Of a stretch of DNA of 64,000 bases, positions 1 through 63,910 are shown in pieces. A program made the translations under genes and the position numbers. Source of the stretch: Thermoanaerobaculia bacterium (GTDB lineage: Bacteria > Acidobacteriota > Thermoanaerobaculia > UBA5066); assembly GCA_963816185.1 (NCBI GenBank), contig CAWFJJ010000030.1, forward strand, positions 384,001-448,000. Reading direction: 5' to 3'. The notes beneath the pieces were generated by a model. The model was given only the letters and a program-made list of their open reading frames with translations, did not search any database and had not been told where the DNA came from. How positions within the stretch are numbered: position 1 is the first letter of the stretch; every line of letters starts with the position of its first letter.

Positions 1-2781
1 CACGTCGGAAGGTGCGAGTCCCGTCGTGGGCTCGTCGAAGATGAAGAGCACCGGCTCGTCCGGGCCGCCGCCCTTCAGGAACGAGGCGATCTTCAGCCGC
101 TGCGCCTCGCCGCCCGAAAGCGTTCCCGTGGACTGGCCGAGCGTCAGGTAGGAGAGCCCTGCTTCCGCGAGAGGCTGGAGCCGGTCCGAGATGGCCCGCA
201 CGTCGGCGAAGAGCTCGCGCGCCTCCTCGACAGTCGTGGCGAGAAGCTCGTCCACGTTCCGGCCCCGCAGCCTCACCGCGAGCACCTCGGGCTTGAACCG
301 TCTCCCGTCGCACACGTCACACACGACCGTCACGTCGGCGAGGAACTGCATGTCGACGTTCACCACGCCGGCGCCCTCGCAGCGCTCGCACCTTCCACCG
401 GGCGCGTTGAAGCTGAAAGCGCCCTTCTCCAGGCCGCGCGCCTTCGCGGCTGGCGTGCGCGCGAGAAGCGTCCGGATCTCGTCCCAGGCTTTCGTGTAGG
501 TGGCCGCGTTCGAGCGAGAAGAGCGCCCCAGCGGCGACTGGTCCACGAGGATGACATCCGAGACCACGTCGAGCCCCTCGATCGCGTCGTGGGCGCCGAC
601 CTCGTCCACGCCCGGGAGGAGCCCCTTCCCCATGCGCTGCCGGGCGCCGGCCGCGAGCACGTCCACGACGAGCGACGACTTCCCCGAGCCCGACACGCCC
701 GACACGGCGACGAGCTGGTGAAGGGGGAAGTCGACGGATATGTTCTGAAGATTATTTGCTCGCGCACCCACGACACGGAGCGCTTCGACGGGACTCAGTT
801 GCAGACGGCCAGAAGGTAGTTTCTTAGAAGGTGAATATGGGCCGGGGCTCTCGGTGGCGACGCGCGCGCCGACTCCGACACCCGGCTCGAGCGCCGGAGA
901 GCTCATACCCCCTTCTAAGAAAGCGCCGAAGGCGCTCGGCATTTCCGCCGCCATGAGTTCACCCGCATCGGAGAGCCCGTACGGTCTGTTTCCTTCCGAA
1001 GCAAGAATTCCTTTCCTTTCCTCGGTCTCCCTCCTCAACGATCTCCCGGTAACCGTGTCTGCCTCTTCCAGCTCTTCCGGCGTCCCCTCGAACACGAGCC
1101 GCCCGCCGCGCGCTCCCGCGCCCGGCCCGAGATCGATGACGTGGTCGGCCGCGCGGATGACGTCCGTGTCGTGCTCGACGGCGACGACGGCGTTGCCGCC
1201 CGCCGCAAGTCGCTCGAGAACGCCGAGGAGCCGGTGCGTGTCGCGGGGATGGAGGCCGACCGTAGGCTCGTCGAGGACGTAGAGCGTGCCGGTGAGGGCG
1301 TTGCCGATCGCCGCTCCGAGCTGGATCCGCTGGGCTTCGCCGCCCGAGAGCGTGCGCATCGTGCGTGCGAGCGTGAGGTACCCGAGCCCGATCTCGACGA
1401 GCGTTCCGACGCGCCGCCGGAGGTCCTCGACGAGCGACGCTCCCCGCGCGCGTTCCTGCACGCCGGGGAGAGCTCCCGCCAGAAAGATGAGCAGCTCGTC
1501 GAGCGTGAGCGCGGCGACGTCCGCGATCGTCTTGCCCGCGAGCGTGACCGCGAGGGCCTCGCTCCTCAGGCGCGCTCCGCCGCAGGAGGGACACGGCGTG
1601 TAGCCGCGATACCGCGACAAGAGGACCCGGACGTGTACCTTGTACCGCTTCTTCTCGAGGTACTTGAAGAGCCCCTCGACGCCGTACCACTCGCCCGAGC
1701 CCTTCCAGACGACGTCGCGCTCCCGCGGTGTCAGGTCGTTCCACGGCACGTCCCACCGCAGCTTGTGGCGCCGCGAAACCGCCTTCAGATCGTCGTAGGC
1801 GCTCTCATACGCGGGCGAATTGAACGGCGCGATCGGCCGCTCGCGGAGCGACTTCCTCCCGTCCGGGATGACGCGCGCCGCGTCGATGCCCGTCACGCGC
1901 CCGAAGCCCTGGCACGTCTCGCACGCGCCACGCGGCGAGTTGAAGGAAAAGAGGGCCGGAACGGGATCCTGGAACGAGCGGCCGCAGACATCGCACGAGA
2001 GACCCCGGCGAAAGCGGCGCGCCGAGGCAAGGTCCTTTCCGGCCTCGAGAACCAGGAGCTCACTGTCCGCGGCGTCGAATGCCATCGAAAGTGAAGAGAG
2101 AATTTCCGGATCGTCCGCGCGAAGGACGTGGCGGCCGATCAGCAGTGGAAACGCGTCCCGATACGCCGCCTCCCCCATCTCCTTTTCATTCGAAGAGATT
2201 TCCAGAACGTCTCCCGAAGCGGAGACATAGCGGTAAAAGCCGAGCCGTCTCCATTCCGCACTCTCCGCCTCGAACGACTGAACTCTCTTTGGCGCGATCA
2301 CGAGCAGCCGCGCTCCCTCGCCGAAGGACTCGAGGAGAGCCTCGCGGACGCTCTCGGCCGTATGCCGGCGCACGGGCGTCCCATCGTCCGGGCAGCGCAG
2401 CGTTCCCGCGGCCGCGTAGAGGAGGCGGAGGACGTCGTGGATCTCGGTCGCGGTCCCGACCGTGGACCGGGCCGAGCGCGCGGGCGCCTTCTGCTCGATC
2501 GCGAGCGCGGGCAGGACGTGCTCGATGAGGTCGACGTCGGGGCGCTCGAGCCTCTCGAGGTATTGCCGCGCATACGTGGACATGGACTCCACGAACCGGC
2601 GCTGGCCTTCGGCGTAGAGCGTGTCGAACGCGAGCGAGGACTTCCCCGAGCCGGAAGGGCCGGTGACGACCGTGAGCGCGCCCACCGGAAAAGCGCACGT
2701 CACGTTCTTGAGGTTGTGCGTACGTGCGTTCACGACCGTGATCGCAGACGCGGCGCGCGACGCGGGGCGCGCGTCGCTCAC
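1..2781 (-). CDS. uvrA: Excinuclease ABC subunit A (3' end runs off the window)
   Basis: Translated by hand, since it is not in the ORF track. GTG at 2781 overlaps the upstream TGA. Shows NARTHNLKNV, GPSGSGKSSLAFDTLYAEGQRRFVESMS, zinc-finger CxxC motifs, LSGGEAQRI, a second ABC domain GARANNLQNISVDFPL/GVSGSGKSS and LSGGEAQRLK. Has an in-frame extra segment at ~790-1020. Confidence 0.95.
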   Translation of the reverse strand, partial: MSDARPASRAASAITVVNARTHNLKNVTCAFPVGALTVVTGPSGSGKSSLAFDTLYAEGQRRFVESMSTYARQYLERLERPDVDLIEHVLPALAIEQKAPARSARSTVGTATEIHDVLRLLYAAAGTLRCPDDGTPVRRHTAESVREALLESFGEGARLLVIAPKRVQSFEAESAEWRRLGFYRYVSASGDVLEISSNEKEMGEAAYRDAFPLLIGRHVLRADDPEILSSLSMAFDAADSELLVLEAGKDLASARRFRRGLSCDVCGRSFQDPVPALFSFNSPRGACETCQGFGRVTGIDAARVIPDGRKSLRERPIAPFNSPAYESAYDDLKAVSRRHKLRWDVPWNDLTPRERDVVWKGSGEWYGVEGLFKYLEKKRYKVHVRVLLSRYRGYTPCPSCGGARLRSEALAVTLAGKTIADVAALTLDELLIFLAGALPGVQERARGASLVEDLRRRVGTLVEIGLGYLTLARTMRTLSGGEAQRIQLGAAIGNALTGTLYVLDEPTVGLHPRDTHRLLGVLERLAAGGNAVVAVEHDTDVIRAADHVIDLGPGAGARGGRLVFEGTPEELEEADTVTGRSLRRETEERKGILASEGNRPYGLSDAGELMAAEMPSAFGAFLEGGMSSPALEPGVGVGARVATESPGPYSPSKKLPSGRLQLSPVEALRVVGARANNLQNISVDFPLHQLVAVSGVSGSGKSSLVVDVLAAGARQRMGKGLLPGVDEVGAHDAIEGLDVVSDVILVDQSPLGRSSRSNAATYTKAWDEIRTLLARTPAAKARGLEKGAFSFNAPGGRCERCEGAGVVNVDMQFLADVTVVCDVCDGRRFKPEVLAVRLRGRNVDELLATTVEEARELFADVRAISDRLQPLAEAGLSYLTLGQSTGTLSGGEAQRLKIASFLKGGGPDEPVLFIFDEPTTGLAPSDV
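820..922. repeat. Inverted motif pair (locus A), in-frame inside uvrA
   Basis: TTTCTTAGAAGGTGAATA (820-837) ... ATACCCCCTTCTAAGAAA (905-922); reads FLEGGMS...PYSPSKK in UvrA. Confidence 0.85.
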
Positions 2782-3353
2782 CGCGAGAACACCGCGAGCT
2801 GGTTCAGGCCGAGGAGAAAACGCCGGTAGAGGACGAGGGAGACGCCAGCCGAACGGCCCGCCTCCTCGAGGGCCGCCCGGCCCAGAAGCGTCTCGTGCTC
2901 GTCGCGGGCGTGCGGCGAGAGGAGGCCGAGGGCCGCGCCCGCCTCCAGGGGCCAGCGGCCGATCGGATGGGGGGTCGTCGCGATCAGGCGGCCCCCCGGA
3001 GAGAGAAGCGGAGAGAGCCGGGAGAGGACGGCGGCAGGGTCCGCGACGTGCTCGAGGACGGCGAGCAGAAGGATTCCTTCGAATGGTCCTTCGCGGACGA
3101 GCGGCGGCGGCGCCTCGGCGCGGGCAATATCCCATTCGAAGAAATCTCTGTTTGGAAATTTCCCGCGCTGGGCCGCCAGCACGTCCGCGTCGCGGTCGCA
3201 TCCGAAATAGACGGGGACGAGGGCTGCGAGGTCCGTCAGCCCGCACCCGACGTCGAGGACGCGCGCGCCGGGAGGCACGTGCGGAAGCGCGGCTGCAAGG
3301 CGCGCCGCCCCGACGCGCACCGTGAGACGTCCGTAGAAAGGCGAGCGCGGCAC
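2778..3353 (-). CDS. Class I SAM-dependent methyltransferase
   Basis: RVLDVGCG motif I, AVLEHVADP, LSPGGRLIATTP. Confidence 0.85.
   Translation of the reverse strand: MPRSPFYGRLTVRVGAARLAAALPHVPPGARVLDVGCGLTDLAALVPVYFGCDRDADVLAAQRGKFPNRDFFEWDIARAEAPPPLVREGPFEGILLLAVLEHVADPAAVLSRLSPLLSPGGRLIATTPHPIGRWPLEAGAALGLLSPHARDEHETLLGRAALEEAGRSAGVSLVLYRRFLLGLNQLAVFSR
3071..3148. repeat. Degenerate inverted motif pair (locus B) inside the methyltransferase
   Basis: GGATTCCTTCGAATGGT (3071-3087) ... CCCATTCGAAGAAATCTC (3131-3148). Confidence 0.55.
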
Positions 3354-10737: not shown

Positions 10738-11854
10738 GTGGATCCCGACCTCTTCCGGCGACACGCCGTCGCGCTGCGCCTCGCACGCTGGTATCGCCGA
10801 TCGAAGCGCGACTTGCCGTGGCGGAGGACGCGAGATCCGTACGCGATCTGGATTTCCGAGGTCATGCTCCAGCAGACGACCGTCGCGGTCGTCGCGAGAC
10901 GCTGGAAGCGGTTCCTTGCGCGCTTCCCCACGGCGAAGGCGCTCGCCAGGGCGCCCGAGCGCGCGGTCCTCGCCGAGTGGAGCGGCCTCGGGTACTACGC
11001 GCGCGCGCGGAATCTGCACCGCGCGGCCAGGATCGTCGCGGCGGCCGGCACATTTCCACGCACGCTCGAAGGCTGGCGGGAGCTGCCCGGCGTCGGGGCC
11101 TACACGGGCGCGGCGGTGGCCTCGATCGCCTTCGGCGTTCCCGCCGCGGTGGTGGACGGTAACGTCGTGCGCGTCATCTGCCGATTGCTCGGCCTCAGGC
11201 TCGATCCGAAGGCGCCGCGATCGCTCGCGCGCGTGAGGTCGGAGGTGCAGGCGCTCATGCCGGCTCGCGGGGCTGGTGACCACAACCAGGCCCTCATGGA
11301 GCTGGGGGCGCTCGTCTGCACACCCCGCGCGCCGCGGTGCGGCGCGTGCCCGCTCCGCGGCGCGTGCCGCGCCGCGGCGAGTGGGAAGCGCGGAAGGCTT
11401 CCCACGAGCTCCACGACGGGTGAAGCCCAGATCGATTCATCTCGTCGCGGGGATCGTCGAGAGGGAGAAGAGAATCTTGCTCGTAGAAGACAAGATCCTC
11501 GTCGAGGGCCATCTTTGCGTTCCGATGTTCGAGGTTCGCAACGGGCAGCGGTCTGCAAATGTTCTTAGCAGGGGGTGGGAGCGAATCGCGCATCGAAAGG
11601 CCGCCGCGCTCGAGCCGGTGGCCACGCTCAGACACTCGGTATTGAATCGTCGCTATCTCGTTTCTCTATTTACCTTCAAAGAAAAAACGCCCGAGCCCTC
11701 GCGCAGCCGACGACCCGGAGCGGACGAACCGTCGCTTTCCGTGCCCATCCCTCCGAGCCGCATTTCCCTCCTCTCTCCGAGCCAGATCTCCCGGCGCGCC
11801 CACGGTGGCCTGCTCCTGAAGGTGCTGGCGGCCTGGCGGGAGCACGGACGCTGA
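10738..11854 (+). CDS. mutY: A/G-specific adenine glycosylase (frameshift ~11390 between catalytic and NUDIX-like domains)
   Basis: RDLPWR, WISEVMLQQT, WSGLGYYARARNLH, LPGVGAYT, VDGNVVRV, MELGALVCTPRAPRCGACPLRGAC (4Fe-4S). The C-terminus continues in ORF 11276..11854. Confidence 0.9.
11557..11686. repeat. Inverted motif pair (locus C) inside the mutY C-terminal domain
   Basis: AAATGTTCTTAGCAGGGGG (11557-11575) ... CTATTTACCTTCAAAGAAAAA (11666-11686). Confidence 0.65.
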
Positions 11855-11877: not shown

Positions 11878-13731
11878 ATGTCGCGACGCGTGGGCAGGAC
11901 GCCGAAACCGGCGCCGGAGGAGTCCGCTGACTCGCAGACGAACGCCCCGGCGCTCGTCCTCGTCGGGATTCTCGCGGCACTCGCCCTTCCTTTTCTCGTC
12001 TTTTCGACGGCTTCCAGCGAGGCCCTTCGCGAGACGAAGCTCCTCGTGCAGGCGCTCGGGGCGGCTCTCGCGATGTTCGGCCTCGCGCGGAGCGGAACCC
12101 TCCCGTCCTTTGGACGAGGGCGAGCCGCGCGCATGGTCATCCTCGGAATCTTCGCGACTCTCGCTCTCACGCTCCTGTCGGGTCTCGCGAACGCGGACAT
12201 CGTGGACCCTCTGACGGCCGTCGCCATCCTCTCCCCGCTCGCGCTCCTCCTCGCCGGTACATCCCAGCCGGGCGGGCGCGCGGCATCCGCCGCGGCGATC
12301 GCGCTGATGGTTGCCGGCGCCGCCACCGGCGCCCTCGCGGCCCTCCAGCGCTGGGCGGGCCTCTTCCGGCTGCCCCTCGAGGTTCCGGAGCCCCGGTTTC
12401 TGGCGGCGGGCCTCATCGGGAACGCGGGGGACGTCGGGATGGCTCTCGTCGTGCCCGCCCTGCTCCTTTTCACGCGGGCGGCGGAGCCGGGAACGAGCGC
12501 CCGAGCGAAAAGCCTCGCGGCGCTCGGCCTTCTGGCGATTCTTCTCGGCCTCGTGGCGACCGAGGCCGTCGCGCCGGCGCTCGCATTCGGTGGGGGCGTC
12601 GCGGTCTTCGTCGCGCTCGACTTCCGGCGGCGCGCTCTCGCTCTCTCGTCCCTCGTCGTGGCGGCGCTCCTCGCAGTCGCGACCGGAGCGGGGCGTCGCT
12701 TCCTCGTGAAGGTCGACGAGTTCCGCCGCGGCGACCTGGCGTCCGCCACGACGCAGCGCGACATCGGTCTCCTCGCGGGGAGAGAAATGATCCGCGAGCG
12801 ACCCCTCCTCGGAGCGGGACCCGGGGCCTTCTCGAATCGATTCGTTCCCGCGCGTCTCGCGGCGGAGAAGCGCACGAGGCGCCATCTCGTGCACCGAAGC
12901 GGCTCGGCTCACTTCGACAATGCGCACAACGAGCCTGTCACCCTCGCGGCCGAGACCGGCGTGCCCGCCGCGATTGCCAGCGTGGTTGCCTCTTGCGCGC
13001 TTTTCGTGGGACTTCTCGCCCGCCGCAAGCTCGCGCCAACGGCCTCCGGCGGCGACTCGATCGACTCTCTCTTCTCCACGCTCTTCGCCGTTGCGCTTCT
13101 GTCTCTCGGCGACTTCCCGTTCCGGATCGCCGTCGCCTCGGGGCCTGTCGCTTTCTTCGCGGGCGTCGCGCTTCGTCGGGTCGCAGGCGATCAGGGAAAG
13201 CCGGAGATTCCCGCGCGCGGTTCCCGCGTCCTCTTCGCGACGCTTGCCCTGTTGCTCGTCGCTCTCGCGGCCTTGCGATCCCTTGCGACGTTCACTCAGG
13301 CGGATGGGGAGACCCTTCTGCGCGAAGCAGCGTCGGCCCCCGAGGACGCTGAATCCCAGAAGGCGGAGCTTCTCTCTGCGGCCGACGCGCGTCTCGCGCG
13401 TACCGTCGCCCTTCGGCCGCGCTCGGCCACGGCTCTTCTCGCCTGGGGTTCGGTGCAATCGCTGCAGGGTGAGCGCGAGCTCGCGTACGCGCTCTACGCG
13501 CGTTCGGTCCGGCTCGAAGAGCGCGCCGAAAGCGATTTGAATCTCGGCCGTGCCGCGGCGGCCCTCGGGCGAAGCCAGGAAGCACGGGCGCTTCTCGTAC
13601 GCTCCGTCTGGATCCAGCCGCGCCTTTTGGACGACGTGCCGCCCGGCGAACGGGATGCGGTCGCTGCCGCCGTCGCGTCTGCCGAGAAAGCTCTCACCCG
13701 CGGCGGAACGGTTCCCGCCGGGCCGCCTTAG
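11878..13731 (+). CDS. O-antigen ligase/oligosaccharyltransferase-like membrane protein with C-terminal TPR
   Basis: Many TM segments, GLIGN, PLLGAGPGAF, NAHNEPV (Wzy_C), and a TPR-like helical tail. ATG at 11878. Confidence 0.75.
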   Translation: MSRRVGRTPKPAPEESADSQTNAPALVLVGILAALALPFLVFSTASSEALRETKLLVQALGAALAMFGLARSGTLPSFGRGRAARMVILGIFATLALTLLSGLANADIVDPLTAVAILSPLALLLAGTSQPGGRAASAAAIALMVAGAATGALAALQRWAGLFRLPLEVPEPRFLAAGLIGNAGDVGMALVVPALLLFTRAAEPGTSARAKSLAALGLLAILLGLVATEAVAPALAFGGGVAVFVALDFRRRALALSSLVVAALLAVATGAGRRFLVKVDEFRRGDLASATTQRDIGLLAGREMIRERPLLGAGPGAFSNRFVPARLAAEKRTRRHLVHRSGSAHFDNAHNEPVTLAAETGVPAAIASVVASCALFVGLLARRKLAPTASGGDSIDSLFSTLFAVALLSLGDFPFRIAVASGPVAFFAGVALRRVAGDQGKPEIPARGSRVLFATLALLLVALAALRSLATFTQADGETLLREAASAPEDAESQKAELLSAADARLARTVALRPRSATALLAWGSVQSLQGERELAYALYARSVRLEERAESDLNLGRAAAALGRSQEARALLVRSVWIQPRLLDDVPPGERDAVAAAVASAEKALTRGGTVPAGPP

Positions 13732-13824
13732 ATTCTCTTAGAAGGTGAATGAGCGCACGCCGCTCGAATCGCCGCGCCGCCATGTCGATCTGCCCCGACC
13801 CCACTCACCCTTCTAAGAAATTCT
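13731..13824. repeat. Inverted motif pair (locus D), intergenic
   Basis: GATTCTCTTAGAAGGTGAATGA ... CACTCACCCTTCTAAGAAATTC. Confidence 0.85.
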
Positions 13825-13835
13825 TCTTCCAACAA

Positions 13836-34223: not shown

Positions 34224-35569
34224 GCGAGAGGTCGAGCCCGGTGCCAGCGCGACGGCGTGAGAAGCGCACGGGCGATCGCGCGCGCCCACATCGAGAGGGA
34301 AGAAAGAAGATCGGCGAAGGTGACTGCGGGAACTTCGGGGGGATACCCGACGCGGGCGCGGAGCGCGACGAGCGAGAGCCACTCGAAGAGCAACGCAGAT
34401 TTTCCTAGAAGTGAAAGGGCGAAGAGCCAAGCGAGGAGCGCGATGGGTCGCGCCGACGCGCCTGCACCCCCGGCCGCGGCTTCGCCGCTTGCCCGCGCCG
34501 CGGCGGACCACGCGCCACTCGAAGAAAACACCACCATGACGACATCCGAAGCGATCGCAAGAAACGCGAGGGCCAAAAGCACGAAGAGTCGTGGCCTCAG
34601 CCAGAGATCGCACGCGAGAACGAACGCCCCTTTCGGGCTCCTCGCCGCGAGCCGCAGGAGGTCGCCGAAGCCCGTCGCGAGCAGCTTCAGATGCCCGCCG
34701 AGCCACCGCGCGCGCGATCGCGCCATCGCGGCGGCCGCGGGAGCAGGCTCGTCGAACGCGACGGGCGACTCGAGCGCGCGGACGCGGACGCCGTTCGCGA
34801 GAAGAGCGAGCGTCGCCTCCGAGTCCTCAGCCGTCGTCCGCGTCGCGACGGCCGGACCGACGCGAAAGGCCCGCGGTGAGAAGCCCATGGCTTTTCCGCG
34901 CAGCCGCACGGGCAGGCCCTCCGCGTCGCGCGCGAGATCGTCCGCGAGCGCGGCTACGAGAGAGAGCGCCTCGACGCGCGGCGCCCCGGCCCCGGGGACT
35001 CCAGCGGGCCTTACGGGCAGCTGGAATACCTCGGTCTCGTCGGGAACGTTCAGGTCGAGGAAGAATCCGTCCGGGAGGCGCATGTCGGCGTCGAAGACGA
35101 GGATGAACGAGTAATCGTCAAGCTGGTCGCCTAGTTGCTCCTCAAGAAATGCCAGCGCATGCCCTTTCGCAGGACCGGGGATCTTCTTAGAAAGGTATTT
35201 GACTCCGTCCGCTTTGAGGCGCGCCTCGGCACCCGGGTCGGGGCCGTCGAGGAGGACGAGAACGTCGACTCCAAAGGGGATTGCGCTCGCCTCTGCGCCT
35301 GCTGCGCTCTTCACCTTCGAAGAAATCTCTTTCTCGGACTCTCTCGTTCCCTCCCCCTCTCTTCTGAGATCTCCGGCGAGGTCCCCCACCCGCGCGCCCT
35401 CGGCGCGTGACGGGATCACGGCGAGGATCTTCCGGGGGGCGCGGCCGGGCGAAACCGGCGGCGCGCCTGCGCGCGGCGCCGCGAGGCGCCGCCACCTCAG
35501 GAAAGCGTCGTACGCGGGCCCCGCCGCCCACGCGGCGAGGAGACCGCACCCTGTCGTGAGGATGTCCAC
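34220..35569 (-). CDS. Glycosyltransferase family 2 membrane protein
   Basis: VIPSRAE, KGHAL, VFDAD, AED, SRARWLGG, C-terminal TMs; extra segment TRESEKEISSKVKS. Confidence 0.8.
   Translation of the reverse strand: MDILTTGCGLLAAWAAGPAYDAFLRWRRLAAPRAGAPPVSPGRAPRKILAVIPSRAEGARVGDLAGDLRREGEGTRESEKEISSKVKSAAGAEASAIPFGVDVLVLLDGPDPGAEARLKADGVKYLSKKIPGPAKGHALAFLEEQLGDQLDDYSFILVFDADMRLPDGFFLDLNVPDETEVFQLPVRPAGVPGAGAPRVEALSLVAALADDLARDAEGLPVRLRGKAMGFSPRAFRVGPAVATRTTAEDSEATLALLANGVRVRALESPVAFDEPAPAAAAMARSRARWLGGHLKLLATGFGDLLRLAARSPKGAFVLACDLWLRPRLFVLLALAFLAIASDVVMVVFSSSGAWSAAARASGEAAAGGAGASARPIALLAWLFALSLLGKSALLFEWLSLVALRARVGYPPEVPAVTFADLLSSLSMWARAIARALLTPSRWHRARPLA
34398..34530. repeat. Degenerate inverted motif pair (locus E) inside GT2
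   Basis: GATTTTCCTAGAAGTGAA ... CCACTCGAAGAAAACA. Confidence 0.5.
35180..35329. repeat. Inverted motif pair (locus F) inside GT2
   Basis: GATCTTCTTAGAAAGGTA (35180-35197) ... CTTCACCTTCGAAGAAATCTC (35309-35329). Confidence 0.8.
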
Positions 35570-44284: not shown

Positions 44285-46036
44285 TCAGTCCGAAGACGAA
44301 GAAGAAGAGAAAGACGAAGACTTCTTAGAAAGGTAAGAGGAGAGGAGGTCCCCCTTGACGACTTTCCCGTAGGGCGTGCGCGGGAGGCTCTCGACGAAGA
44401 CGAAATCCCGTGGGACCTTGTACTTCGCGAGGCGCGCCTCGACGAATGCGGCAAGCGCGCCGCCGCTTCGAAGAAATCCCCTTCGCCTTCCTCTTCCCCT
44501 TCAAGAAATCTTCTCTTCTCTTTCTTCTTTGCGGCGAACGACGAATGCGACGCCGACCTCTCCCCACTTCTCGTCCGGCACGCCGACGACCGCGACGTCC
44601 TTCACGCCCGCGTGCTGGAAGAGCACCCCTTCGACCTCGGCCGGATAGACGTTGACGCCGCCCGAGATGAACATGTCCTTCTTCCGGCCCGCGATCGTGT
44701 AGAAGCCGTCGGCGTCGCGCTTGGCGAGATCGCCCGTATGGAACCAGCCCTCCGCGTCGAGCGGCGGCGGCCGTGGCCTCGGGGTTCCGGAAATAGCCCT
44801 GGCAGACGTGAGGCCCGCGCAGGAGAAGCTCCCCGATCTCGTCCGTGCCCGCCTCGCGGCCGTCCTCGAGGAGGAGCCTCGCCTGAGTGAACATGAGCGG
44901 CTTGCCGATGGAGCCGGCCTTCCTCACGGATTCCTCGGCCGTCATCGCGAAACAGTTCACGCCCACTTCGGTCAGGCCGTAGCCCTGCTTCAGGACGACT
45001 CCTCGCGCCTGCCACGCCTCGATCAGATCGAGGGGCAGCGGAGCTCCCCCGCTGGCGAACCAGCGGACGCTCGAGAAGTCCGCGCCGGCGAATCCCTTCG
45101 CCTCGCGCAGCATCCGGAAGATCGTCGGAACGCCGAGCACGACGGTGCAGCGCTCGCGCGAGATGGTCGCGAGGATCTCTTCCGCGTCGAAGCCGGCGTG
45201 CAGCACGATGGTCCCGCCGATCGCGAAAATCGGCGTGAGGAACGCACCGAGCCCGCCTGCGTGGTAGAGCGGCGTGAAGATCGGGCTGACGTCGTCCTCG
45301 CGGAGCTGCCAGGAGACGGCGGTGTTCACCGCGTTCCATGCCACCATGCGGTGCGGCACCATCACGCCCTTCGGCTTGCCGGTCGTGCCCGAGGTATAGA
45401 GAAGGCAATAGAGATCCTCGGGCGACGGGACGAGAGAAGACGAAGATTCTGCAGCGGCGCCGGTAGGCGCCGCTGGAAGAGGAAGAGAGACGGAACAGAG
45501 GATTTCTTCGAAGGTGAATGAAGGAGAGTGCGCGCCCGCCGGCGGTGCGGTTGGCGCGGCCGGGGAGTCAAGTGCCGCGCCTTTCGAATCTCTTACCCTT
45601 CTAAGCAGGTCCTCTTCGGACCTCCCGGCGCGCTCCGCCGGCTCGTCGAGCGCGACGGGTTCCCGTGTTCCCCTTTTCTAAGCAAATCTCTGACCTTCTC
45701 TTCGAACCCGGCTCCGTAGATCAAGGCCTTCGGCTGCGCGTCTTCGAGGATTCCCGCAAGCTCCCCCGCCGTCTGCCGCGTGTTGAGCGGCACGAGCACG
45801 ATGCCCGTCTTGGCGCACGCGAAGAAGACGTCGAGGAACTCGACGCGGTTGTGGGCGAGAAGCGCGACCCGGTCGCCTTTCCTCAGGCCGAGGCCTTCGG
45901 TGAGCGCACGCGCCGCCGCTTTCGCGCGGGCATCCATCTCCGAGTAAGAGAACCGCCGCCCGGTTGCGACCTCGACGAGCGCCGTCTTGGACGGTGCGAG
46001 GCGCGAGCGCTCGCCGAGGACGTCGCCGGAAATCAC
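44285..46036 (-). CDS. Long-chain acyl-CoA/AMP ligase, interrupted as assembled (two frameshifts and an in-frame TGA)
   Basis: GTG 46036; YTSGTTGKPKG, QGYGLTE, WFHTGD, GRKKDMFISGGVNVYPAEVE, AKYKVPR, LPRTPYGKV. Frame changes at ~45670 and ~44765; TGA at 44501-44503. Confidence 0.85.
44319..44512. repeat. Motif cluster (locus H) in the acyl-CoA ligase 3' end
   Basis: GACTTCTTAGAAAGGTAA ... CGCTTCGAAGAAATCC ... CCCCTTCAAGAAATCTT, with a purine-rich left flank and pyrimidine-rich right flank. Confidence 0.75.
45501..45689. repeat. Motif cluster (locus I) in the acyl-CoA ligase
   Basis: GATTTCTTCGAAGGTGAATGA ... CTTACCCTTCTAAGCAG ... TCCCCTTTTCTAAGCAAATCT. Confidence 0.8.
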
Positions 46037-51675: not shown

Positions 51676-51697
51676 GCGGAAGATGGGGAAAAGAGGA

Positions 51698-51868
51698 GAT
51701 TTCTTAGAAGGGGCATAGGGCGCGCCCGGCGGCGAGCCTCGAGGCGCCAGGTTCCCGGCGCGCCGCGCGTCTATTCACCTTCGAAGAAAAGGTGCCTCTC
51801 CCGGGCTCCTGAGCCTTCTCGCCGCGCTCGGGCCGCCCCCGCGTCCTATTCACCCTCTAAGAAAATCT
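51698..51868. repeat. Motif cluster (locus J), intergenic
   Basis: GATTTCTTAGAAGGGGCATAGG ... CTATTCACCTTCGAAGAAAA ... CTATTCACCCTCTAAGAAAATCT. Confidence 0.88.
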
Positions 51869-51879
51869 TCTCTCCTCTC

Positions 51880-54666: not shown

Positions 54667-55643
54667 TCAGGAGGCTGCGAGCGCGAGGCGCCAGTCGCGT
54701 GAGGCCGCGGCTCCAAGCGACACGCCGATGCCCGCGAGCGAGGCGAGACCCCAGACGAGAGGACCCGCGACCGGAACGAGGGACGCGAGGCCGAGGAGGA
54801 GGAGGCCGATGCCGAGCGCAGCCGGATCGCCGAAAAGGAGATCGCCGCGCACGGCGCGGCGCGTCGTGCGGCGGCCCAGGACGACGAACAGAGCCGCGAG
54901 ACCGAAGATCTTCGCCGCGGCGAGAACCCCGAGCAGTGCGACGCCGAGGACGAGCGCGAACCGGGCCGGCAGGGCGGAGAGCGCGAACGCCTCGAGGAAG
55001 AGGGCGGTCAGGACCGCGGTCGCCCCGAGCGCCGCGAGAAACGCGAAGCGGCCTCGAGCTTCGTCCGCCGCCCGGAGGACCGGGCGGGGCGCGAAAAAGA
55101 GGAGGCCGACGGAAACGAGGAGCCAGCACAGGAGCAGAAACAGGCGGAAGGAGAGAATGAGCGGCGAGTTCTTGCCGGACGTCAGAGGCGACGTCTCGAG
55201 CTCGGAGACGACGGCCGCTTCGAGAGCGGTGATCGTCCGGATGTCGGCCCCCGACCTGCGGCGGGAACACGCTCGTCGTCGCGTTCGAAGAGCGGCCACC
55301 GGGGATTTCTTCGAAGGTGAGAGAACCGCCGACCGCAAGCACATCGCCATCGATGACGAGCGCCTCGTTTGATCGTCGCGTCCGCGCCGAGGAGGATCAG
55401 GTCGCGACGAATGTGGCCCGACACGACAGCCGTTCCTCCTCCGACGAGCACCGCGCTTCCTTCCAATTCACCTTCTAGGAAAACCTTCCTTCCGAGAGCC
55501 ACGACGTCGCCGGCGCGGATCGTTCCTTTCGGAATGGACAACGAGCCTTCCTCGGCCTTCGCGCGTGACGAGACTGCCGGAACGAGAATCAAAAGAAGAG
55601 CCAGAATCGCCCGGCTTCCGGTCGAGCGCGTCAAGCAGCTCAC
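54667..55643 (-). CDS. Membrane protein with polymer-forming (bactofilin-like) beta-repeat N-terminus (two frameshifts)
   Basis: Pieced from three ORFs: signal peptide + GDVVALG/GSAVLVGG/RDLILLG, then GDVLAVGG, then a multi-TM C-terminus ending LVPVAG...GIG. Confidence 0.7.
55304..55485. repeat. Inverted motif pair (locus K) inside a CDS
   Basis: GATTTCTTCGAAGGTGAGA ... AATTCACCTTCTAGGAAAACC. Confidence 0.75.
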
Positions 55644-58888: not shown

Positions 58889-60537
58889 ACGCGACCTTCC
58901 GATGGAACTCCGCGCGGGCCGCGGGGCGGACGCTTCTGGCAGGCGACTCCCGCGGGCGCCTCGCCACCTTCGCGGGACTCGGCGCTCTCCTCGCGTTCAC
59001 CGGCCTGGAAACGGTCGGCCTGGAGGGTGCCCTCCGCGCCTCGCGCGCCGCCCTGGGCGAGCTGCCCGAGATCCGGCCTGCATTTCTCCTCGAGCGCCTC
59101 CTCGGGCTCGCGTTCGCGGCCGCCCTCGCCCTTGGATTCCTCGGATCGCTCACGACGGCGATCTCCACGCTCTTCCTCTCGGACGAGCTCGGCGCCCTGT
59201 GCGTCCTTCCCTTCGCGCACCGGCGTCTCGTCTTGAGGCAGGCGTTTCTCACGCTCGCCCTCGCGTCCGCGCCGGCGGTTCTCCTTTCGATCCCCGCCCT
59301 TCTCGTCGCCGCTCTCGCCACCCGCCGTCCGCTTCTCGCGTTCGCAGCGGGCGCCGTGCCGCTCGCCGGCGTGATGCTCCTCGCGGGCGCGACAGGGATC
59401 GCGGCGGCTCTCCTCCTCGTACGCCTCGTGCCCCCGAGGCGCGCCCGCCTGCTCGCGGCCTTCCTGTCGGCGACCGGCCTCGCCGCGGCCCTCGTCGGCT
59501 TCCGTGCCGCCCGGCCGGAGCGCCTTCTCGATCCGACCGAGGCTCTCGCCGTCGTGACGCGCCTGGGTGCCGTGCGCCCCTCTTCGCCGGGACTCCAACC
59601 GGCCGCGTGGGCCGCACGCGCAGCGACGCGCGGCCTCTTCGGCGACGCGGGGGGCCTCGCTCCAGGCGTTGCGCTCTTTCTCGCAGGCCTGGCCGTCTTT
59701 CTTCTCGTTCCGACCGCTCTCTGGCGCCTCCATCTCCACGTGCTCCGCGACTCGTGGCCGGGATCGGCGGCGACGGCTGGCCCGGCGGGCCGCGGCTCCG
59801 AGGCCCGTTCGCTCGGCGGGGTGCTCGTGCGCTCCGAAGCGGCGAGTCTTCTCCGCGACGCCTCGACGCCGGCGCAGCTCGGGTCGTTGGCCGCCGTGTT
59901 CCTGCTCGACCTGATGAACGTCCGGCTCCTGCCAGGGACGGACGCCGCCGCACGCGACCTCGTGGCGGGTTTGCAGACCGGCCTCTCGCTCTTCCTCGTC
60001 TCCGCGCTGTCGCTGCGCTTCGCCTATCCGTCGGTCTCGTCCGACGGCCGCGCGGCGCTCGTCCTCCGGACGCTGCCCCTCGACCCGCGGCTCCACCTCT
60101 TCGTCCGGTGGGCCGTCCGCGCCTTTCCGGCCGCGGGCGTCGGCCTCGCCCTGACCGGCGCCAGCCTGCTCGTCCTCCGGCCCGGAAAGACGATCTCCGC
60201 GCTCGCGCTCGTCGCGGCGTTCGCCGGGAGCCTCGCGATTCCGGCGCTCCACGTCGGCCTCGGCGCCCTTTTCCCGCGCTACGACGCGCCGAACGCGGTG
60301 AGCGTGGCGCTCTCCACGGGAGGACTTTTCGCCCTCGTATTCTCGACGGGGCTCTCGCTGTTCTCGACGCTCGTCGTATCCGCGGAGCTGCAGACGCTGC
60401 TCGGAACACTTCTGAAGATCCGGATGGGGCCCTTGCCGCTCCTCACTGCGTTCCTCATCCTGGCGGTGGCCGCTGCGATCGTCCCGCTGGCACTAGCCGC
60501 GCGGTCGCTCGCGACAAAAGACATCGCCATCGGGTGA
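58885..60537 (+). CDS. Putative ABC exporter permease
   Basis: GTGA overlap; TLFLSDEL, LRFAYPSVSSDG, many TMs. Confidence 0.85.
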   Translation: MNATFRWNSARAAGRTLLAGDSRGRLATFAGLGALLAFTGLETVGLEGALRASRAALGELPEIRPAFLLERLLGLAFAAALALGFLGSLTTAISTLFLSDELGALCVLPFAHRRLVLRQAFLTLALASAPAVLLSIPALLVAALATRRPLLAFAAGAVPLAGVMLLAGATGIAAALLLVRLVPPRRARLLAAFLSATGLAAALVGFRAARPERLLDPTEALAVVTRLGAVRPSSPGLQPAAWAARAATRGLFGDAGGLAPGVALFLAGLAVFLLVPTALWRLHLHVLRDSWPGSAATAGPAGRGSEARSLGGVLVRSEAASLLRDASTPAQLGSLAAVFLLDLMNVRLLPGTDAAARDLVAGLQTGLSLFLVSALSLRFAYPSVSSDGRAALVLRTLPLDPRLHLFVRWAVRAFPAAGVGLALTGASLLVLRPGKTISALALVAAFAGSLAIPALHVGLGALFPRYDAPNAVSVALSTGGLFALVFSTGLSLFSTLVVSAELQTLLGTLLKIRMGPLPLLTAFLILAVAAAIVPLALAARSLATKDIAIG

Positions 60538-60633
60538 CCTTCTAAGAAGATCTTCTTAGAAGGGTGAATGAGCGAGGCGCTCATGAGCAAGGCGTCGGCC
60601 TGGCAACCGGCACGGGACCTTCTAAGCAAAGAT
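60535..60633. repeat. Motif cluster (locus L) between convergent genes, containing a perfect 26 bp palindrome
   Basis: CCTTCTAAGAAGATCTTCTTAGAAGG (60538-60563), then GTGAATGA ... ACCTTCTAAGCAAAGAT. Confidence 0.88.
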
Positions 60634-60658
60634 ATTTGGTGCTCTTCGAACGCCGCAC

Positions 60659-61570
60659 TCAAGGGACGGCGTGTAGCGGCGGGTCGCCGCGCGCGAAGCG
60701 CGCGATCTCCTCGCACGCGAGGCGCGCCATCGCGAGGCGCGTCTCGACGGTGGCCGAGCCGAGATGCGGAAGGAGAACGACGTTGGGAAGGGAGAGCAGC
60801 CCGGCGTGAATCGCAGGCTCTTTCTCGTAGACGTCCAGGCCCGCCCCCGAAAGATGCTTCGAGTGAAGGGCCGCAACCAGCGCGCCTTCGTCCACGATCG
60901 GGCCGCGCGCGGTGTTGATCAGGATCGCTCCCTTCTTCATTCGCAGAAGCTCTTCCTCTCCGAATCTTCCGCGAGTCCCCTCGGTCAAAGGCGCATGGAT
61001 CGACAGGACGTCGAGCTTCGAAAGAAAATCTTCGAACTCCTCTTCCGTGCCATCCCTGTCGAAAGAGAGGACTCTCATCCCGAACGCCTCGCCTCGGCGC
61101 GCGGCGGCGCGGCCGATCCGGCCCATGCCGTAGATCCCGAGCGTCTTCCCCGAGAGAGAGATGCCGAGGAGCTCCTGCGGCTTCCAGCCGTCCCATGCCC
61201 TCGAGCGCGCCAGCGCCTCGCCTTCGCGAATCCGCCGCGCGACCGCGAGGATCAGCGCCCAGGCGAGATCGGCCGTGGCGTCCGTGAGGACGTCGGGCGT
61301 GTTCGTGACGAGGATCCCGCGGGATCGGCAGGCTGCGAGGTCGATGTGATCGACGCCGACCGAGTGGCTCGCGACGATTTGGACCCGCGGCGACGCGGCG
61401 AGGACCTCGGCTGTGATCGGCTCACGCGGCGTCGGAAGGAGTGCGTCGGCGTCGTGGAGGAGCGGCCACTCGGAGCGCGGCAGGTTCCCGCCGCCGGTGA
61501 CGACGGTATGCCCGGCGAGGATCTCGGTCGTCGAGGGCTCGACGAGAGGCTGACCGACGAAGACTTTCAC
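60659..61570 (-). CDS. D-2-hydroxyacid dehydrogenase (glyoxylate reductase/D-glycerate dehydrogenase)
   Basis: VGVDHID, TNTPDVLT, GIYGMGRIG, INTARG, LDVYEKEP, PHLGSAT. Confidence 0.93.
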   Translation of the reverse strand: MKVFVGQPLVEPSTTEILAGHTVVTGGGNLPRSEWPLLHDADALLPTPREPITAEVLAASPRVQIVASHSVGVDHIDLAACRSRGILVTNTPDVLTDATADLAWALILAVARRIREGEALARSRAWDGWKPQELLGISLSGKTLGIYGMGRIGRAAARRGEAFGMRVLSFDRDGTEEEFEDFLSKLDVLSIHAPLTEGTRGRFGEEELLRMKKGAILINTARGPIVDEGALVAALHSKHLSGAGLDVYEKEPAIHAGLLSLPNVVLLPHLGSATVETRLAMARLACEEIARFARGDPPLHAVP

Positions 61571-61740: not shown

Positions 61741-63910
61741 GGCACGGCTCCCGGCGGCCTGACCTCGCGCGGGCGGGATGTCACACGCACGGACACGAGA
61801 CGGTCGTCCTGCTCGATGCGGTCGAGGACCTCCCATCCCTCGAGGACGCGCCCGAACACGGTGTAGCCGCCGTCGAGGTGGGGCTGCGAAGAAAGCGCGA
61901 CGAACCACTGCGACCCGCCCGTGTCCGCTCCTGAGAGCGCCATCCCCACGGCGCCGCGCGTGTAGCGCACCGGGTTGATCTCGTCGCGAATCGCATAGGC
62001 GGGACCGCCTCTCCCTTCGCCGCGCGGGTCGCCCGTCTGGACGACGAAGTCCGGCACGACGCGGTGGATCACCAACCCGTCGAAGAACCGCTTCGCAGCG
62101 AGCGCGCGAAAGCTCTCGACCGTGAGGGGCGCGTCCTCGGCGAGAAGCTCCATTCGGAATGCGCCGCGCGCCGTCGCGACCTCCGCCTCGAAGAGCGACT
62201 CGTTCGACGCGCGCGCGACACGGTCGTAATCCTCCGTCGAGAGCCGCGTCGCAACCGGGATCGGCCGGAAGGAAGCGGCGGAAGCGCCGTATTTTTCGAT
62301 CAGGAGGCGCCGCGCCTTCTCGCGCATGACAGCGTCCGAGTCGTTCGCATGCGCGGCCACGAGGGCGTGTCCGGCCTCCCCCCGTGCCGCCGCGGCGTCG
62401 AGCGCCCCGACGGTGAAGTCCGGTTCGGCCGACTCGAACGCGCGTTCGAACGCGGCCGACCACACCCGCCTGAGTTTTGCGCTCCCTTTCTCGAGAAGCG
62501 GCGCGGCCGCATCGAGCGCCACGTCCCTCACTGCGGCGTCGCGGTCGATCAGGCCGGCGAGAAGATACGCGGAGCGCTTCGGAGAATCCTGCTTGGAAAG
62601 GGAAGCGAGGGCTGCGGCGCGGACGCGCGCGAACGGGTCGGAATGAAGGGCCGTCGCCACCTGCACGTCCAGGGCGCTCTCCCCATTCAGGAACTTGAGC
62701 GCTTCCGCAGCACCGAGCCTCAGCTCGAGTGAGTCGCTCGCGGATGCCGCATCCAGTCTCTTCGCCGCCGCCTCCGGTGCCCGCGCAGCGTCGAGGCGCG
62801 TCAGAGAGACGAGGGCCGTCTGCCCACGCCACCCCTTTCGAAGAAGGTTCTCATCGAGCGCCGCACGCGACGCGGGCGAGTCGGGCAAGACCCCGAGCAG
62901 ACGCAGGGCGGCGATTGCCACTCCGGGAAGGGGGTCGTTGGCCCGCGCGACGGCCACGTCGAGAGCGCTGCGAGTCAGCTCGTCACCGACGGAGACGGGG
63001 ATTTTCTTAGAAAATGAATGCAGCGCGGCCAAGGCCTGTACGGCAACCGAGATGTCACGCGCTCGACGCGAGGCGGATCAGGTCTCCGGTGCTCTCCTCG
63101 TCTTCGAGGATTCCCATTGCCGCGCGCGGCCCAAGCGACTTCCTCGCTCGACGGCGCAGCCGGATTCTCATGCCCCTCTCTAAGCACCGCGCGAAGCGCG
63201 GAAGGTTCCTCCTCCCCCGCGCGGAGCGCGGGAGGATCCCCGCTCCCCTTTCTGAGCACCGCGCGAAGCGCGGGCGCCGCCTCCGGCTGAGGCTTGCGAG
63301 ACAGGGCATAAACGACCGCTCGCCTGAGCGCGGGAGCAAGATCCTTCTCTCCGAACGCGGTGAGGAGCGCCGTCACCGTCCGCGCCTCGGGCTTCCGAAA
63401 GAGCGCGAGAGCGCATGCCGGCCTCGGACCGGCCGGTTTTGCGAGAGACGCGAGGAGCGCGTCCGTGGCGTCCTTCCCCCCGATCTTCCCGAGCGCCTCG
63501 GCGGCGTTCGCGGCGGTCTCGACGTCCGGGTCCCCGAGCGCCGCGACGAGAAAGCGCAGGAGGCGCGCGTCGCCCGAGAGCCCCGCGCCGAACGTGGCCG
63601 CGCGGCGCACGAGGGGCTCCGCGTCCTTCAGGAGCACCGGCAGGTACACGGACGCGTCAGGATCCTTGAGGCGGGAGACCGCGAGCGCGGTTTTCGCGCG
63701 CAGCCAGGGGTCGGGCGAGGCGGCTGCGTGGCCCGAGAGGAGCGGATCGTACGCGCGGCGGTCCTCCATGCGGAGGAGGTCCGCGAATCCGATGAGGCGC
63801 TCGCGGTACGTGCCTTTCGGCAGGCCCTTCTCGGCGCCGAATGTGACACAGCCCGCGAGGACGACGAACGCGACGAGCGCGGCGAGCGCGCGAGGGTGGG
63901 CGCTTCGCAT
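61737..63910 (-). CDS. Lipoprotein with HEAT repeats and C-terminal cyclophilin-type PPIase (frameshifts ~63050-63125)
   Basis: Lipobox VLAGC, HEAT repeats, then APLTVESF, HRVVPDFVVQTGDPRG, GMALSGADTGGSQWF, HLDGGYTVFGRV. Confidence 0.85.
62831..63273. repeat. Motif cluster (locus M) with a 72 bp-period duplication
   Basis: ACCCCTTTCGAAGAAGG (62831), GATTTTCTTAGAAAATGAATG (63000), and CT[A/G]AGCACCGCGCGAAGCGCGG at 63180 and 63252. Confidence 0.7.

Follow-up and report, generated by a model that had tools for sequence, protein, structure and literature searches.

To our knowledge, very few lineages impose a long DNA word on their own coding sequence, the main ones being those that carry uptake sequences or the HIP1 word. 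Work on both systems has raised questions of molecular drive, self-recognition and the organisation of chromosomes. HIP1, in cyanobacteria, is described as a hyper-abundant short word found within and between ORFs that is thought to be kept by selection and possibly concerns chromosome structure (PMC5861425). It is 8 bp long, perfectly palindromic and has cognate methyltransferases (PMC4390886, PMC13756078). Rickettsia palindromic elements are inverted-repeat elements of about 100-150 bp that lie in unrelated protein genes (PMC10969869). The AT-rich word described here comes from uncultured soil Acidobacteria of a single genus. It resembles each of these three systems, uptake sequences included, and fits none. 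Like HIP1 as that word is described in PMC5861425, it is iterated and conserved within and between ORFs; unlike HIP1, it is asymmetric, longer and bound by a rule of pair orientation.

We use "window" for the whole 64,000-nt stretch of DNA that was analysed, and "arm" for one oriented copy of the word, a unit of about 28-40 nt with an 11-bp core, TTCTTNGAAGG, and purine-rich flanks. The N of the core (position 5) is A except where A would create a stop codon. Logos built from 206 pairs are identical for left arms and reverse-complemented right arms, so that the two sides of a pair share terminal inverted repeats; the outer flanks are purine-rich on the left and pyrimidine-rich on the right, as the original prediction had it. 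The core and its flanks are asymmetric, not palindromic, and information content reaches background about 20 nt inside the core. The motif is real and far above chance expectation. A PWM search at 16 bits or more found 855 arms in the 5.09-Mb genome, about one per 6 kb, against 100 in a reversed-genome control, and the word is equally common on the two strands (433 vs 445). In the window, allowing up to 3 mismatches in a 20-mer gave 7 matches and none in 100 shuffles, and allowing up to 2 in a 13-mer gave 11 (shuffles: mean 0.8, maximum 4).

Most arms are paired, and the pairs face inward. Altogether 566 of the 855 arms form 283 inward-facing pairs with partners 48-396 bp apart, and the reversed genome contains no such pair. 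Neighbouring arms within 30-400 bp are forward-reverse in 283 cases, reverse-forward in 18, forward-forward in 47 and reverse-reverse in 44. When the threshold for a partner is relaxed to 8 bits, 143 of the 289 unpaired arms acquire a weaker inward partner (outward control: 18). Overall, 66-83% of arms are in pairs 48-400 bp apart. Arms that remain solo show no clear bias with respect to the gene strand (50 sense, 37 antisense). Genes enclose 156 of the 283 pairs. Among the 74 intergenic pairs, 23 have an outer span of 83-87 bp, a size favoured in non-coding DNA, and only five lie between convergent genes, a context in which pairs are not enriched. The spacing also has a weak helical-phasing peak near 9 bp, which the size classes may cause.

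For the window, the original prediction had named 13 loci, each with a forward (F) copy followed by a reverse (R) copy. An F arm is present at all 13 (PWM scores of 14-36 bits), and ten have an R arm of at least 17 bits downstream, but full inward pairing fails at three, where the R arm is weak: 34398 (10 bits), 60549 (11 bits) and 63000. The spans counted by hand agree with ours: at each of the 12 loci for which an identical partner was meant, our outer span is 4 bp larger (loci 1-12 in order: 101, 69, 122, 85, 125, 141, 68, 154, 104, 88, 175 and 76 bp). Ten loci had been assigned to genes. With gene calls from our own crude codon-usage gene caller and Pfam, nine (820, 3071, 34398, 35180, 39485, 44319, 45501, 55304 and 63000) lie in or straddle coding sequence and four (11557, 13731, 51698 and 60549) are intergenic, so that ten is not reached. 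Arms beyond the original list lie at 2187, 44498, 45674, 51853, 60538, 60938 and 62835. Pairs 1-9 and 11 and loci 10 and 12, given below, carry no strand assignment.

Pair 1 (813..929; F core 821-831, 34 bits; R core 911-921, 23 bits) lies within an uninterrupted UvrA-like ORF of the minus strand, at a site where the genome under study, G000, is longer by about 138 bp than the motif-free outgroup G042. Pair 2 (3067..3151) joins a weak F core (3075-3085, 14 bits) to an R core at 3133-3143 (29 bits) in a SAM-methyltransferase gene (2778-3353, minus strand). Pair 3 (11554..11691; F core 11562-11572, 17 bits; R core 11673-11683, 28 bits) is intergenic, upstream of a Wzy_C gene, and pair 4 (13727..13827; F core 13735-13745, 30 bits; R core 13809-13819, 36 bits) is a canonical intergenic 85-bp module. 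A single glycosyltransferase-like gene holds pair 5 (34394..34534; F core 34402-34412, 20 bits; weak R core 34516-34526, 10 bits) and pair 6 (35176..35332; F core 35184-35194, 27 bits; R core 35314-35324, 35 bits). Relative to G042, both F arms are substitutional, the interior of pair 5 has insertions, and the R arm of pair 6 falls within about 66 nt that G042 lacks. Pair 7 (39481..39564; F core 39489-39499 and R core 39546-39556, 23 bits each) lies in the gene for prolyl-tRNA synthetase (ProRS).

An acyl-CoA synthetase-like gene carries the next two pairs. The F arm of pair 8 (44314..44516; F core 44322-44332, 32 bits; R cores 44465-44475, 17 bits, and 44498-44508, 15 bits) overlaps its 3' end, and the interior codes for a conserved C-terminal segment; pair 9 (45496..45692; F core 45504-45514, 36 bits; R cores 45597-45607, 22 bits, and 45674-45684, 19 bits) is inside the gene, with arms conserved in 15 orthologues and an interior of variable length. 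In 12 of 15 genomes neither pair interrupts the reading frame. Locus 10 (51693..51871; F core 51701-51711, 34 bits; R cores 51778-51788, 27 bits, and 51853-51863, 33 bits) is intergenic, and the block of about 190 bp that contains its F-R-R array (51.69-51.88 kb) is absent from all six aligned relatives in the genus. The ORF around pair 11 (55299..55489; F core 55307-55317, 30 bits; R core 55471-55481, 29 bits) has no Pfam match; its arms are kept in five or six of the 6 relatives. Locus 12 (60529..60636; R core 60538-60548, 21 bits; F core 60553-60563, 32 bits; weak R core 60618-60628, 11 bits) lies between convergent genes, and its presence varies by relative. At locus 13 (62996..63023, plus strand; F core 63004-63014, 29 bits) the partner is degenerate: the best R copy in our scan scores 4 bits at 63248, and the copy first proposed, near 63170, is degenerate too. 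A public contig has 109 letters replaced directly after this arm (62981 to 63092). Three solo R-oriented arms lie on the minus strand: 2178..2205 (core 2187-2197, 25 bits); 60929..60956 (core 60938-60948, 19 bits), in a 2-hydroxyacid dehydrogenase gene, kept in all five mapped relatives and absent in G042; and 62826..62853 (core 62835-62845, 18 bits), variable among relatives.

Arms are read in every frame. Predicted genes contain 536 of the 855 arms (63%) in a genome that is 88% coding, and all six frames are represented, which extends genome-wide the earlier observation of different frames at different loci. Of 319 non-genic arms, 226 carry A at core position 5. In two reading frames an A there would complete TAG or TAA, and in these it drops to 6 of 80 and 3 of 111 arms; the switch from A to C is confined to these frames. 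The occupation of all six frames and of non-coding DNA, and the frame-limited switch, support the earlier proposal that the constraint acts on nucleic acid and not on protein. Between nucleic acids the evidence leans to DNA over RNA, since position-wise arm-arm covariation is absent in the 283 pairs and the duplex of true partners (47-nt arms, -31.75 kcal/mol) is barely more stable than that of shuffled ones (-30.72 kcal/mol).

New arms arise by point substitution in resident genes and also by short insertions and duplications. The ProRS pair is the clearest case. It aligns with G042 without indels, the sequence between its arms belongs to the conserved editing domain and has homology to distant ProRS sequences, and both arms are present in 27 of 28 genus genomes. 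Members of the sister genus have at this site no arm, a partial F arm, an F arm alone, or an F arm with a partial R arm; the order of gains read from this series assumes that the arm-free state is ancestral, which distant ProRS sequences support. Five of six sequences are gap-free in and between the arms, and the sixth, G056, carries 2 inserted nucleotides in the R-arm region. Both ProRS arms are built by substitution alone, around conserved coding sequence. Presence or absence of a whole unit is seen at 51.69-51.88 kb and partly at 60.55 kb, while ProRS has substitutions only. Elsewhere, many intragenic pairs encode low-complexity linkers of Ala, Gly, Pro and Ser, and arms are tandemly duplicated in orthologues.

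Once formed, arms are held at orthologous positions across the genus. Across six relatives, an arm of at least 14 bits is present in 77 of 91 mapped arm-by-relative cells, as opposed to 0 of 4 in G042. Identity in the core is 0.83 and in adjacent flanks 0.66-0.75, although the core value is only moderately above that of ordinary coding sequence (0.77-0.79), so that coding constraint may explain part of it.

A strict 15-mer occurs 52-258 times per genome in all 28 genomes of the genus, 2-30 times in all eight of the sister genus, and 0-1 times in 26 genomes of eight other genera of the family; 12 genomes drawn from two further families likewise have 0-1 copies. The word arose on the stem shared by the two sister genera and then rose in the source genus. 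No alternative over-represented AT-rich 9-mer was found in 52 kb of G042, and 10 neighbouring genes that are missing from G042 here are, by Pfam, metabolic, save one TetR-family regulator. Literature queries with the core words, and on dispersed inverted repeats in Acidobacteria coding regions, returned nothing pertinent among the matches listed.

The suggestion that the pairs are mobile traces in the manner of Rickettsia palindromic elements survives in part: in-frame low-complexity inserts and one lineage-specific insertion agree with it, and substitution-made pairs around conserved host sequence do not. An old miniature inverted-repeat family would have arms as terminal inverted repeats, drifted interiors, copies kept in frame in tolerant loops, and occasional cut-and-paste. 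The sharp 83-87 bp class, the F-R-R block missing from six relatives, the extra arm-bearing sequence of G000 relative to G042 at 0.8 kb and 35.3 kb, and the linker-like, tandemly duplicating intragenic pairs all speak for such a family. We nevertheless consider it rather unlikely. No indel accompanies the substitutions that made the ProRS arms or the F arms at 34.4 and 35.2 kb, interiors are sometimes conserved host sequence (ProRS, a kinase subdomain, the acyl-CoA synthetase C-terminus), and arm retention in independent lineages is unexpected of dead copies. The spacers are unrelated to one another, as first noted, only 38 of 283 interiors clustering by blastn; the largest cluster consists of 18 Ser/Thr kinase paralogues and the next of a repeated 5' leader. 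Direct k-mers (k = 3-8) at all offsets up to 45 bp outside the cores do not exceed a shuffled-partner control and give no target-site duplication, though old ones could have decayed. The best matches to the G000-specific insertion reach 70-75% over about 100 nt including arms, and its interiors alone have no significant match, so no source copy was found. A transposase flanked by the same ends had also been envisaged. The genome has no recurrent long F...R class of 0.5-10 kb, and the three arm-bracketed genes checked (0.5-4 kb) code for ferredoxin/MBL, PIN and amidohydrolase proteins, not a transposase. PF01609 (IS4/IS5) transposases are sporadic, in 8 of 29 genus genomes, and the element ends in G000 and G011 are unrelated to the arms, which rejects that family as a partner; the idea that the inner arm resembles IS5-type ends was not supported. 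PF01797 (Y1, RAYT) occurs in 4 of 28 genus genomes vs 30 of 34 in other genera, and it is missing from G000, which rejects a RAYT partner. REPIN-RAYT systems consist of two inverted short repeats with a less conserved spacer between them and are inherited vertically within a lineage. The pairs share this architecture and inheritance, but most arms here are intragenic (63%), they are not GC hairpins, and G000 lacks the Y1 transposase. Rickettsia palindromic elements, in the account of PMC10969869, are translated in frame with the host protein, as part of the copies are here, and are likewise shared by related species; those elements, however, are insertions with a whole-element consensus and peptide, whereas here the arms alone are shared, interiors are unrelated or host sequence, and some pairs were made by substitution.

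A self-DNA tag spread by molecular drive, in which word-bearing fragments are preferentially taken up or recombined and closer variants replace alleles, would account for the origin by substitution. Like the USS of Pasteurellaceae and the DUS of Neisseriaceae, the word is lineage-specific and oriented, with hundreds of copies balanced between both strands, and its number rises stepwise across the sister genus; a 20-kb stretch mostly missing from relatives is arm-free. For comparison with the genic share of 63%, ORFs hold 65%, 49% and 34.5% of the uptake sequences of three genomes, and those sequences are described as occupying, as the arms do, several frames and poorly conserved positions and as built by substitution (PMC2817400). 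Even so, we regard such a tag as improbable. The inward-pair rule has no place in the model. Genes for ComEC and DprA are present but say little, because the families also match in 10 and 11 of 14 control genomes. Two genomes with 1,471 and 1,892 uptake sequences are of about 2 Mb each. The density of arms is below that of these two genomes (PMC2817400). Neisseria, as described in PMC2397512, needs one copy, and its DUS pairs are at most 21 nt apart, in terminators; here at least two thirds of arms are in inward pairs 48-400 bp apart, and few of the intergenic pairs lie between convergent genes. A Rho-independent terminator, a short GC stem with a T run at gene ends, was itself rejected: the arms are AT-rich and at least 26 nt apart, 156 of the 283 pairs are intragenic, and the intergenic ones are not enriched between convergent genes. 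Arms that pair in RNA or single-strand DNA, a transcript reading 5'-F...R-3' and forming a stem for processing, stability or protein binding, would profit from the fact that any F can pair with any R (mean -31.8 kcal/mol) and that a symmetric pair gives the same RNA layout from both strands. This is very unlikely, given that true partners barely beat shuffled ones and that the R...F order would form a stem equally well, yet is about 16 times rarer. Covariation is missing genome-wide and also in 28 ProRS orthologues (0.051 vs 0.058 shuffled), of which 20 keep a central mismatch. Interiors fold no better than random genomic segments (mean z -0.24 to -0.63 vs -0.21), and the window has no Rfam match at the gathering score. 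In an inverton, a site-specific recombinase would flip the DNA between the arms. Our pairs, inverted repeats of 11-28 bp around 50-400 bp and many of them intragenic, have the layout described for intragenic invertons, whose inverted repeats bracket short coding segments (10.1101/2023.03.11.532203). But wherever mapping was good (eight window pairs by six relatives), the interior gives a better alignment in the forward than in the reversed orientation, and among the joints listed in contigs assembled from three soil DNA runs and one RNA run (window 44001-64000; minor forms are invisible in contigs) none changes strand at an arm. Flipping would moreover wreck essential genes such as ProRS, and some 300 sites with a single shared repeat consensus should promote large rearrangements, whereas synteny with relatives is unbroken. 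We find this reading barely credible.

The reading we prefer, to which we assign a probability of roughly 0.45, is that the arms would be a lineage-specific, highly iterated DNA signal, convergent sites for a putative protein, kept by selection or drive, and neither transposon copies nor a base-paired stem. The proposal of paired sites for a DNA-binding protein fits the data best, with the protein itself brought in by analogy and by excluding alternatives. Under the preferred reading, a sequence-specific putative protein would read the arm on duplex DNA and would need two convergent copies, in the manner of a transposase, recombinase or bridging protein at terminal repeats; selection, or biased-transmission drive tied to the reading, would keep and multiply the arms, which may work, or at least persist, as inward pairs 48-400 bp apart.

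Some observations count against an iterated signal. No reader protein was found; the pair geometry could be inherited from inserted two-armed modules, in view of the 83-87 bp class (23/74) and the G000-specific block of about 190 bp; and the core, as noted, exceeds ordinary coding sequence in conservation only moderately.

The arm word adds a rule of orientation and pairing that uptake sequences and HIP1 lack. Tentatively, and with some doubt, it may be a third kind of genome-wide iterated signal: an 11-bp word that would count only as a convergent pair, written progressively by substitution into resident genes, essential ones included, with drive or selection coming from DNA-handling machinery specific to the genus. 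This machinery, which could be a recombinase or transposase that was domesticated, or a step of self-DNA recognition in recombination, would act on the 50-350 bp between arms. In practical terms, the AT-rich arms are a genus marker for metagenomes, create low-complexity inserts in proteins, and may mislead gene callers and repeat finders. Hundreds of pairs, many in working genes, are carried by this genus, and the two sister genera together form a graded natural series from near zero to hundreds of copies. With that series and the clean point-change arms in an essential gene, the origin and maintenance of the word are therefore testable by comparative and population genomics.

The window (G000:C30:384001-448000, G000 being this genome and C30 its contig) belongs to an assembly of 5,088,052 bp in 30 contigs with 67% G+C. 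We define an "arm" as an oriented AT-rich unit of about 28-40 nt, with an 11-bp core in purine-rich flanks, and a "pair" as a forward (F) arm followed by a reverse (R) arm, facing inward. The consensus proposed for this word in the original prediction is not random in the window: a 20-mer with up to 3 mismatches has 7 matches, compared with 0 in 100 shuffles, and a 13-mer with up to 2 mismatches has 11, compared with a shuffle mean of 0.8. Across the genome there are 98 exact copies of the 11-mer TTCTTAGAAGG and 103 of its complement; when position 5 of the core may be A or C and one substitution is allowed, the matches number 878 (433 and 445 on the two strands). The whole-genome matrix scan suggested with the prediction, using a 28-nt weight matrix made from pair arms, found 855 arms at or above a threshold of 16 bits, compared with 100 in the control, a reversed but uncomplemented genome. 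Left and right arms give an identical logo, RRR(A/T)T-TTCTTNGAAGG-KGAA-RGGG, in which the purine bias reaches about 20 nt outward from the core.

Arms are arranged by a pair rule. Neighboring arms 30-400 bp apart form 283 inward (+-), 18 outward (-+), 47 (++) and 44 (--) combinations, and the reversed genome holds no inward pairs. Because 143 of the 289 unpaired arms have a weaker inward partner (at least 8 bits; 18 in the outward control), about 83% of the strong arms have a partner facing them. All 13 paired loci predicted in the window were recovered, three of them with a weak reverse copy. Outer spans range from 48 to 396 bp; they are broad for intragenic pairs (median 121 bp) and include a sharp 83-87 bp class among wholly intergenic pairs (23 of 74). 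Eighteen paralogous Ser/Thr kinases account for a spike at exactly 102 bp. In these kinases the F arm codes EFFEGEE and the R arm SFEEIP, at a distance of 102-106 bp (exactly 102 in 16 of them), and the arms flank a conserved subdomain holding RFEREAK and LNHPNIA stretches; examples are at C24:602898-620305 (six tandem copies), C23:2634, C23:5303 and C30:311521.

Most arms reside in genes, and they are read in every frame. With an in-house codon-usage caller (4,261 genes, 88% coding), 536 of the 855 arms are genic and occupy all six frames, sense and antisense; 156 of the 283 pairs are contained in one gene, 74 lie entirely between genes and 53 cross a gene end. The intergenic pairs occupy tandem (53), divergent (16) and convergent (5) spacers in proportion to the spacers' shares of length, and therefore are not terminators. 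Among 319 non-genic arms, 226 have A at core position 5, as do 50-90% of those in four frames. Two frames stand apart: there an A would create TAG or TAA, only 6 of 80 and 3 of 111 arms carry it, and C is used instead. This avoidance indicates that the arms really are translated, and the switch itself that the word is a signal at the level of DNA that yields only where forced. The constraint on nucleic acid that the original prediction inferred is supported by six-frame use together with the position-5 switch, and the evidence leans toward DNA.

The proposed comparison of host proteins with orthologues took in an acyl-CoA synthetase-like gene. Its arms encode EDLLRRVRG, TTFKEIFSS, EEKISLKV and LYLSKKSS, and the gene is open through both pairs in 12 of 15 genus orthologues, L012, L014 and L025 lacking a single open frame. 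Many other intragenic pairs code linkers rich in Ala, Gly, Pro and Ser. In G000 itself this gene (window 44300-46040, minus strand) is broken by frameshifts near 45665 and near 44765, the latter distant from any arm, and carries an in-frame TGA near 44512, within a purine-rich arm stretch; public contigs differ by one letter at 44762/44763. It could be a pseudogene or reflect assembly indels.

Other structures accompany some arms. A GC hairpin with a 10-bp stem and 4-nt loop (~45440-45475, minus strand) lies in coding sequence just 3' of an R arm; in the L011-L025 alignment most orthologues retain it, and at least three lineages (L018, L021/L022, L024) show double compensatory changes. GC hairpins of a similar kind come after the R arms at ~925-940 and ~63185-63200. 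A conserved module of ~150 nt, consisting of a long palindrome around a GC core and a second GC hairpin, has eight copies in G000, each bracketed by arms: C14:32939-33173, C14:41638-41890, C24:129878-130206, C24:143237-143489, C24:151949-152180, C24:509808-510161, C25:104916-105134 and C30:539966-540183. At least three (C14:32939, C24:151949, C25:104916) are directly upstream of 183-aa paralogous genes. No other large family of non-coding interiors was found, and the module could serve as a shared promoter, a leader or a small RNA. Within the window there was no Rfam match.

The word is restricted in its distribution. Counted as a strict 15-mer with up to one mismatch, it is present in 29 of 29 genomes of this genus (52-258 copies per genome; 132 in G000) and 8 of 8 of the sister genus (2-30 copies), falling to 0-1 copies per genome in 26 genomes from eight other genera of the family and in 12 genomes, one of them unpublished (G019), from two other families of the order. 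When one genome per species was scanned for an exact 17-mer, the matches listed were mostly Acidobacteriota or Thermoanaerobaculia MAGs and also included single copies in unrelated taxa, many of them AT-rich.

Arms are retained within the genus. When 21 window arms were mapped on six genus relatives with 75-87% DNA identity, 77 of 91 mapped cells scored at least 14 bits, an approximate count since close arms can share a cell; in the sister-genus genome G042 the figure was 0 of 4. Core identity to the relatives is 0.83, compared with 0.66-0.75 over the 60 nt outside it and 0.77-0.79 farther off. Both arms of a pair in the prolyl-tRNA synthetase (ProRS) gene are kept in 27 of 28 genus genomes, G037 lacking the R arm, and lineage-specific arms include those at 34402, 62835 and 45597. 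At 62981-63092, contigs of two public soil runs carry unrelated sequence for 109 letters directly after F arm 63004, and this interior appears hypervariable between strains.

Comparison with the sister genus reveals that arms arise in more than one way. G042 is syntenic with the entire window and has three copies of the word. Between it and the ProRS pair (39489-39556) there is no indel; about half of the bases differ in each arm, and the interior, which is homologous to ProRS editing-domain sequence of distant bacteria, is about 75% identical. Six sister-genus genomes form a graded series at this site, from no arm (G042) through a partial F arm (G050) and F only (G054, G056) to F with a partial R arm (G051, G053); G056 has a 2-nt insertion, and there are otherwise no gaps in or between arms. 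Substitution also accounts for the F arms of the 34.4- and 35.2-kb loci. Other arms came with added DNA: the R arm at 35.3 kb lies in about 66 nt of it, the 0.8-kb locus has about 138 bp, and at 51.69-51.88 kb there is a block of about 190 bp, arranged F-R-R, that is absent from all six aligned genus relatives and for whose interiors G000 yielded no source copy. Some orthologues show tandem duplication of arms. A stretch of 20.6 kb (13828-34393), where about 3.5 arms would be expected at the genome mean density, has none; it holds a 2,822-aa ORF (21020-29488) and a Ku gene (13963-14838), is mostly missing from G042 and in parts from genus relatives, and would fit arms accumulating only in long-resident DNA.

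We consider an RNA stem very improbable. Position by position, the two arms of a pair are as identical to each other as shuffled partners are (all z about 2 or less), duplex energy is -31.75 kcal/mol compared with -30.72 for shuffled partners, and interiors fold as random DNA does. Among 28 ProRS orthologues, 81.5% of cells pair (81.7% shuffled), the covariation score is 0.051 (0.058 shuffled), and a central mismatch is retained in 20. The R arm does resemble the 3' end region of the 16S rRNA gene (L001:3035-3075, which includes the spacer start) at 15 of 19 positions with one 4-nt gap, so that the F arm holds a Shine-Dalgarno-like AAGGTGA; since solo arms have no sense/antisense bias, the likeness may be coincidence. 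That the pairs bound invertible segments (invertons) is hardly credible: interiors align forward in all well-mapped relatives, and among the joints listed for public-run contigs, which cannot show minor forms, none changes strand at an arm.

An old family of MITEs or of elements like Rickettsia palindromic elements (RPEs) is a doubtful but more serious alternative. The original prediction offered mobile traces of the RPE kind as one candidate, and RPE-like insertions do occur among the copies; the arms that arose by substitution, in ProRS and as the F arms of the 34.4- and 35.2-kb loci, do not belong with them. Part of the RPE literature (PMC10969869) describes a comparable in-frame residence in unrelated genes; the RPE consensus, unlike this word, spans the whole element. 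As classical MITEs the pairs fail, in that no target duplication was found and interiors are not shared; the proposed search for a transposase bracketed by arms found none among the three bracketed genes examined, and PF01609 (IS4/IS5) elements are sporadic, the two examined having ends unrelated to the arms. REPINs are disfavored by the absence of the Y1 (RAYT) transposase profile PF01797 from G000; such genes occur in 4 of 28 genomes from the genus rich in the word, compared with 30 of 34 from the other nine genera of the family. An uptake-like self tag is unlikely. Uptake sequences (PMC2817400) share with this word a limitation to a lineage, a large share inside genes and a substitutional origin, and the presence of ComEC and DprA is uninformative. 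For uptake sequences, however, a single copy is enough and paired copies form close terminator stems (PMC2397512), unlike the convergent pairs here.

We tentatively favor, at a probability of about 0.45, a reading in which a protein would recognize each arm on duplex DNA and act on a convergent pair of them, while selection or biased transmission would retain the arms. Among the papers listed in a literature search for the core words, none was relevant. HIP1 is likewise conserved within and between ORFs with its role unexplained (PMC5861425), and differs in being a palindromic octamer. Uptake sequences and HIP1 are closest in spirit to the word, with RPE-like insertions among its copies, and the obligate convergent-pair geometry is not known from any described system. 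The paired word is a real, strong and genus-wide feature of these genomes.
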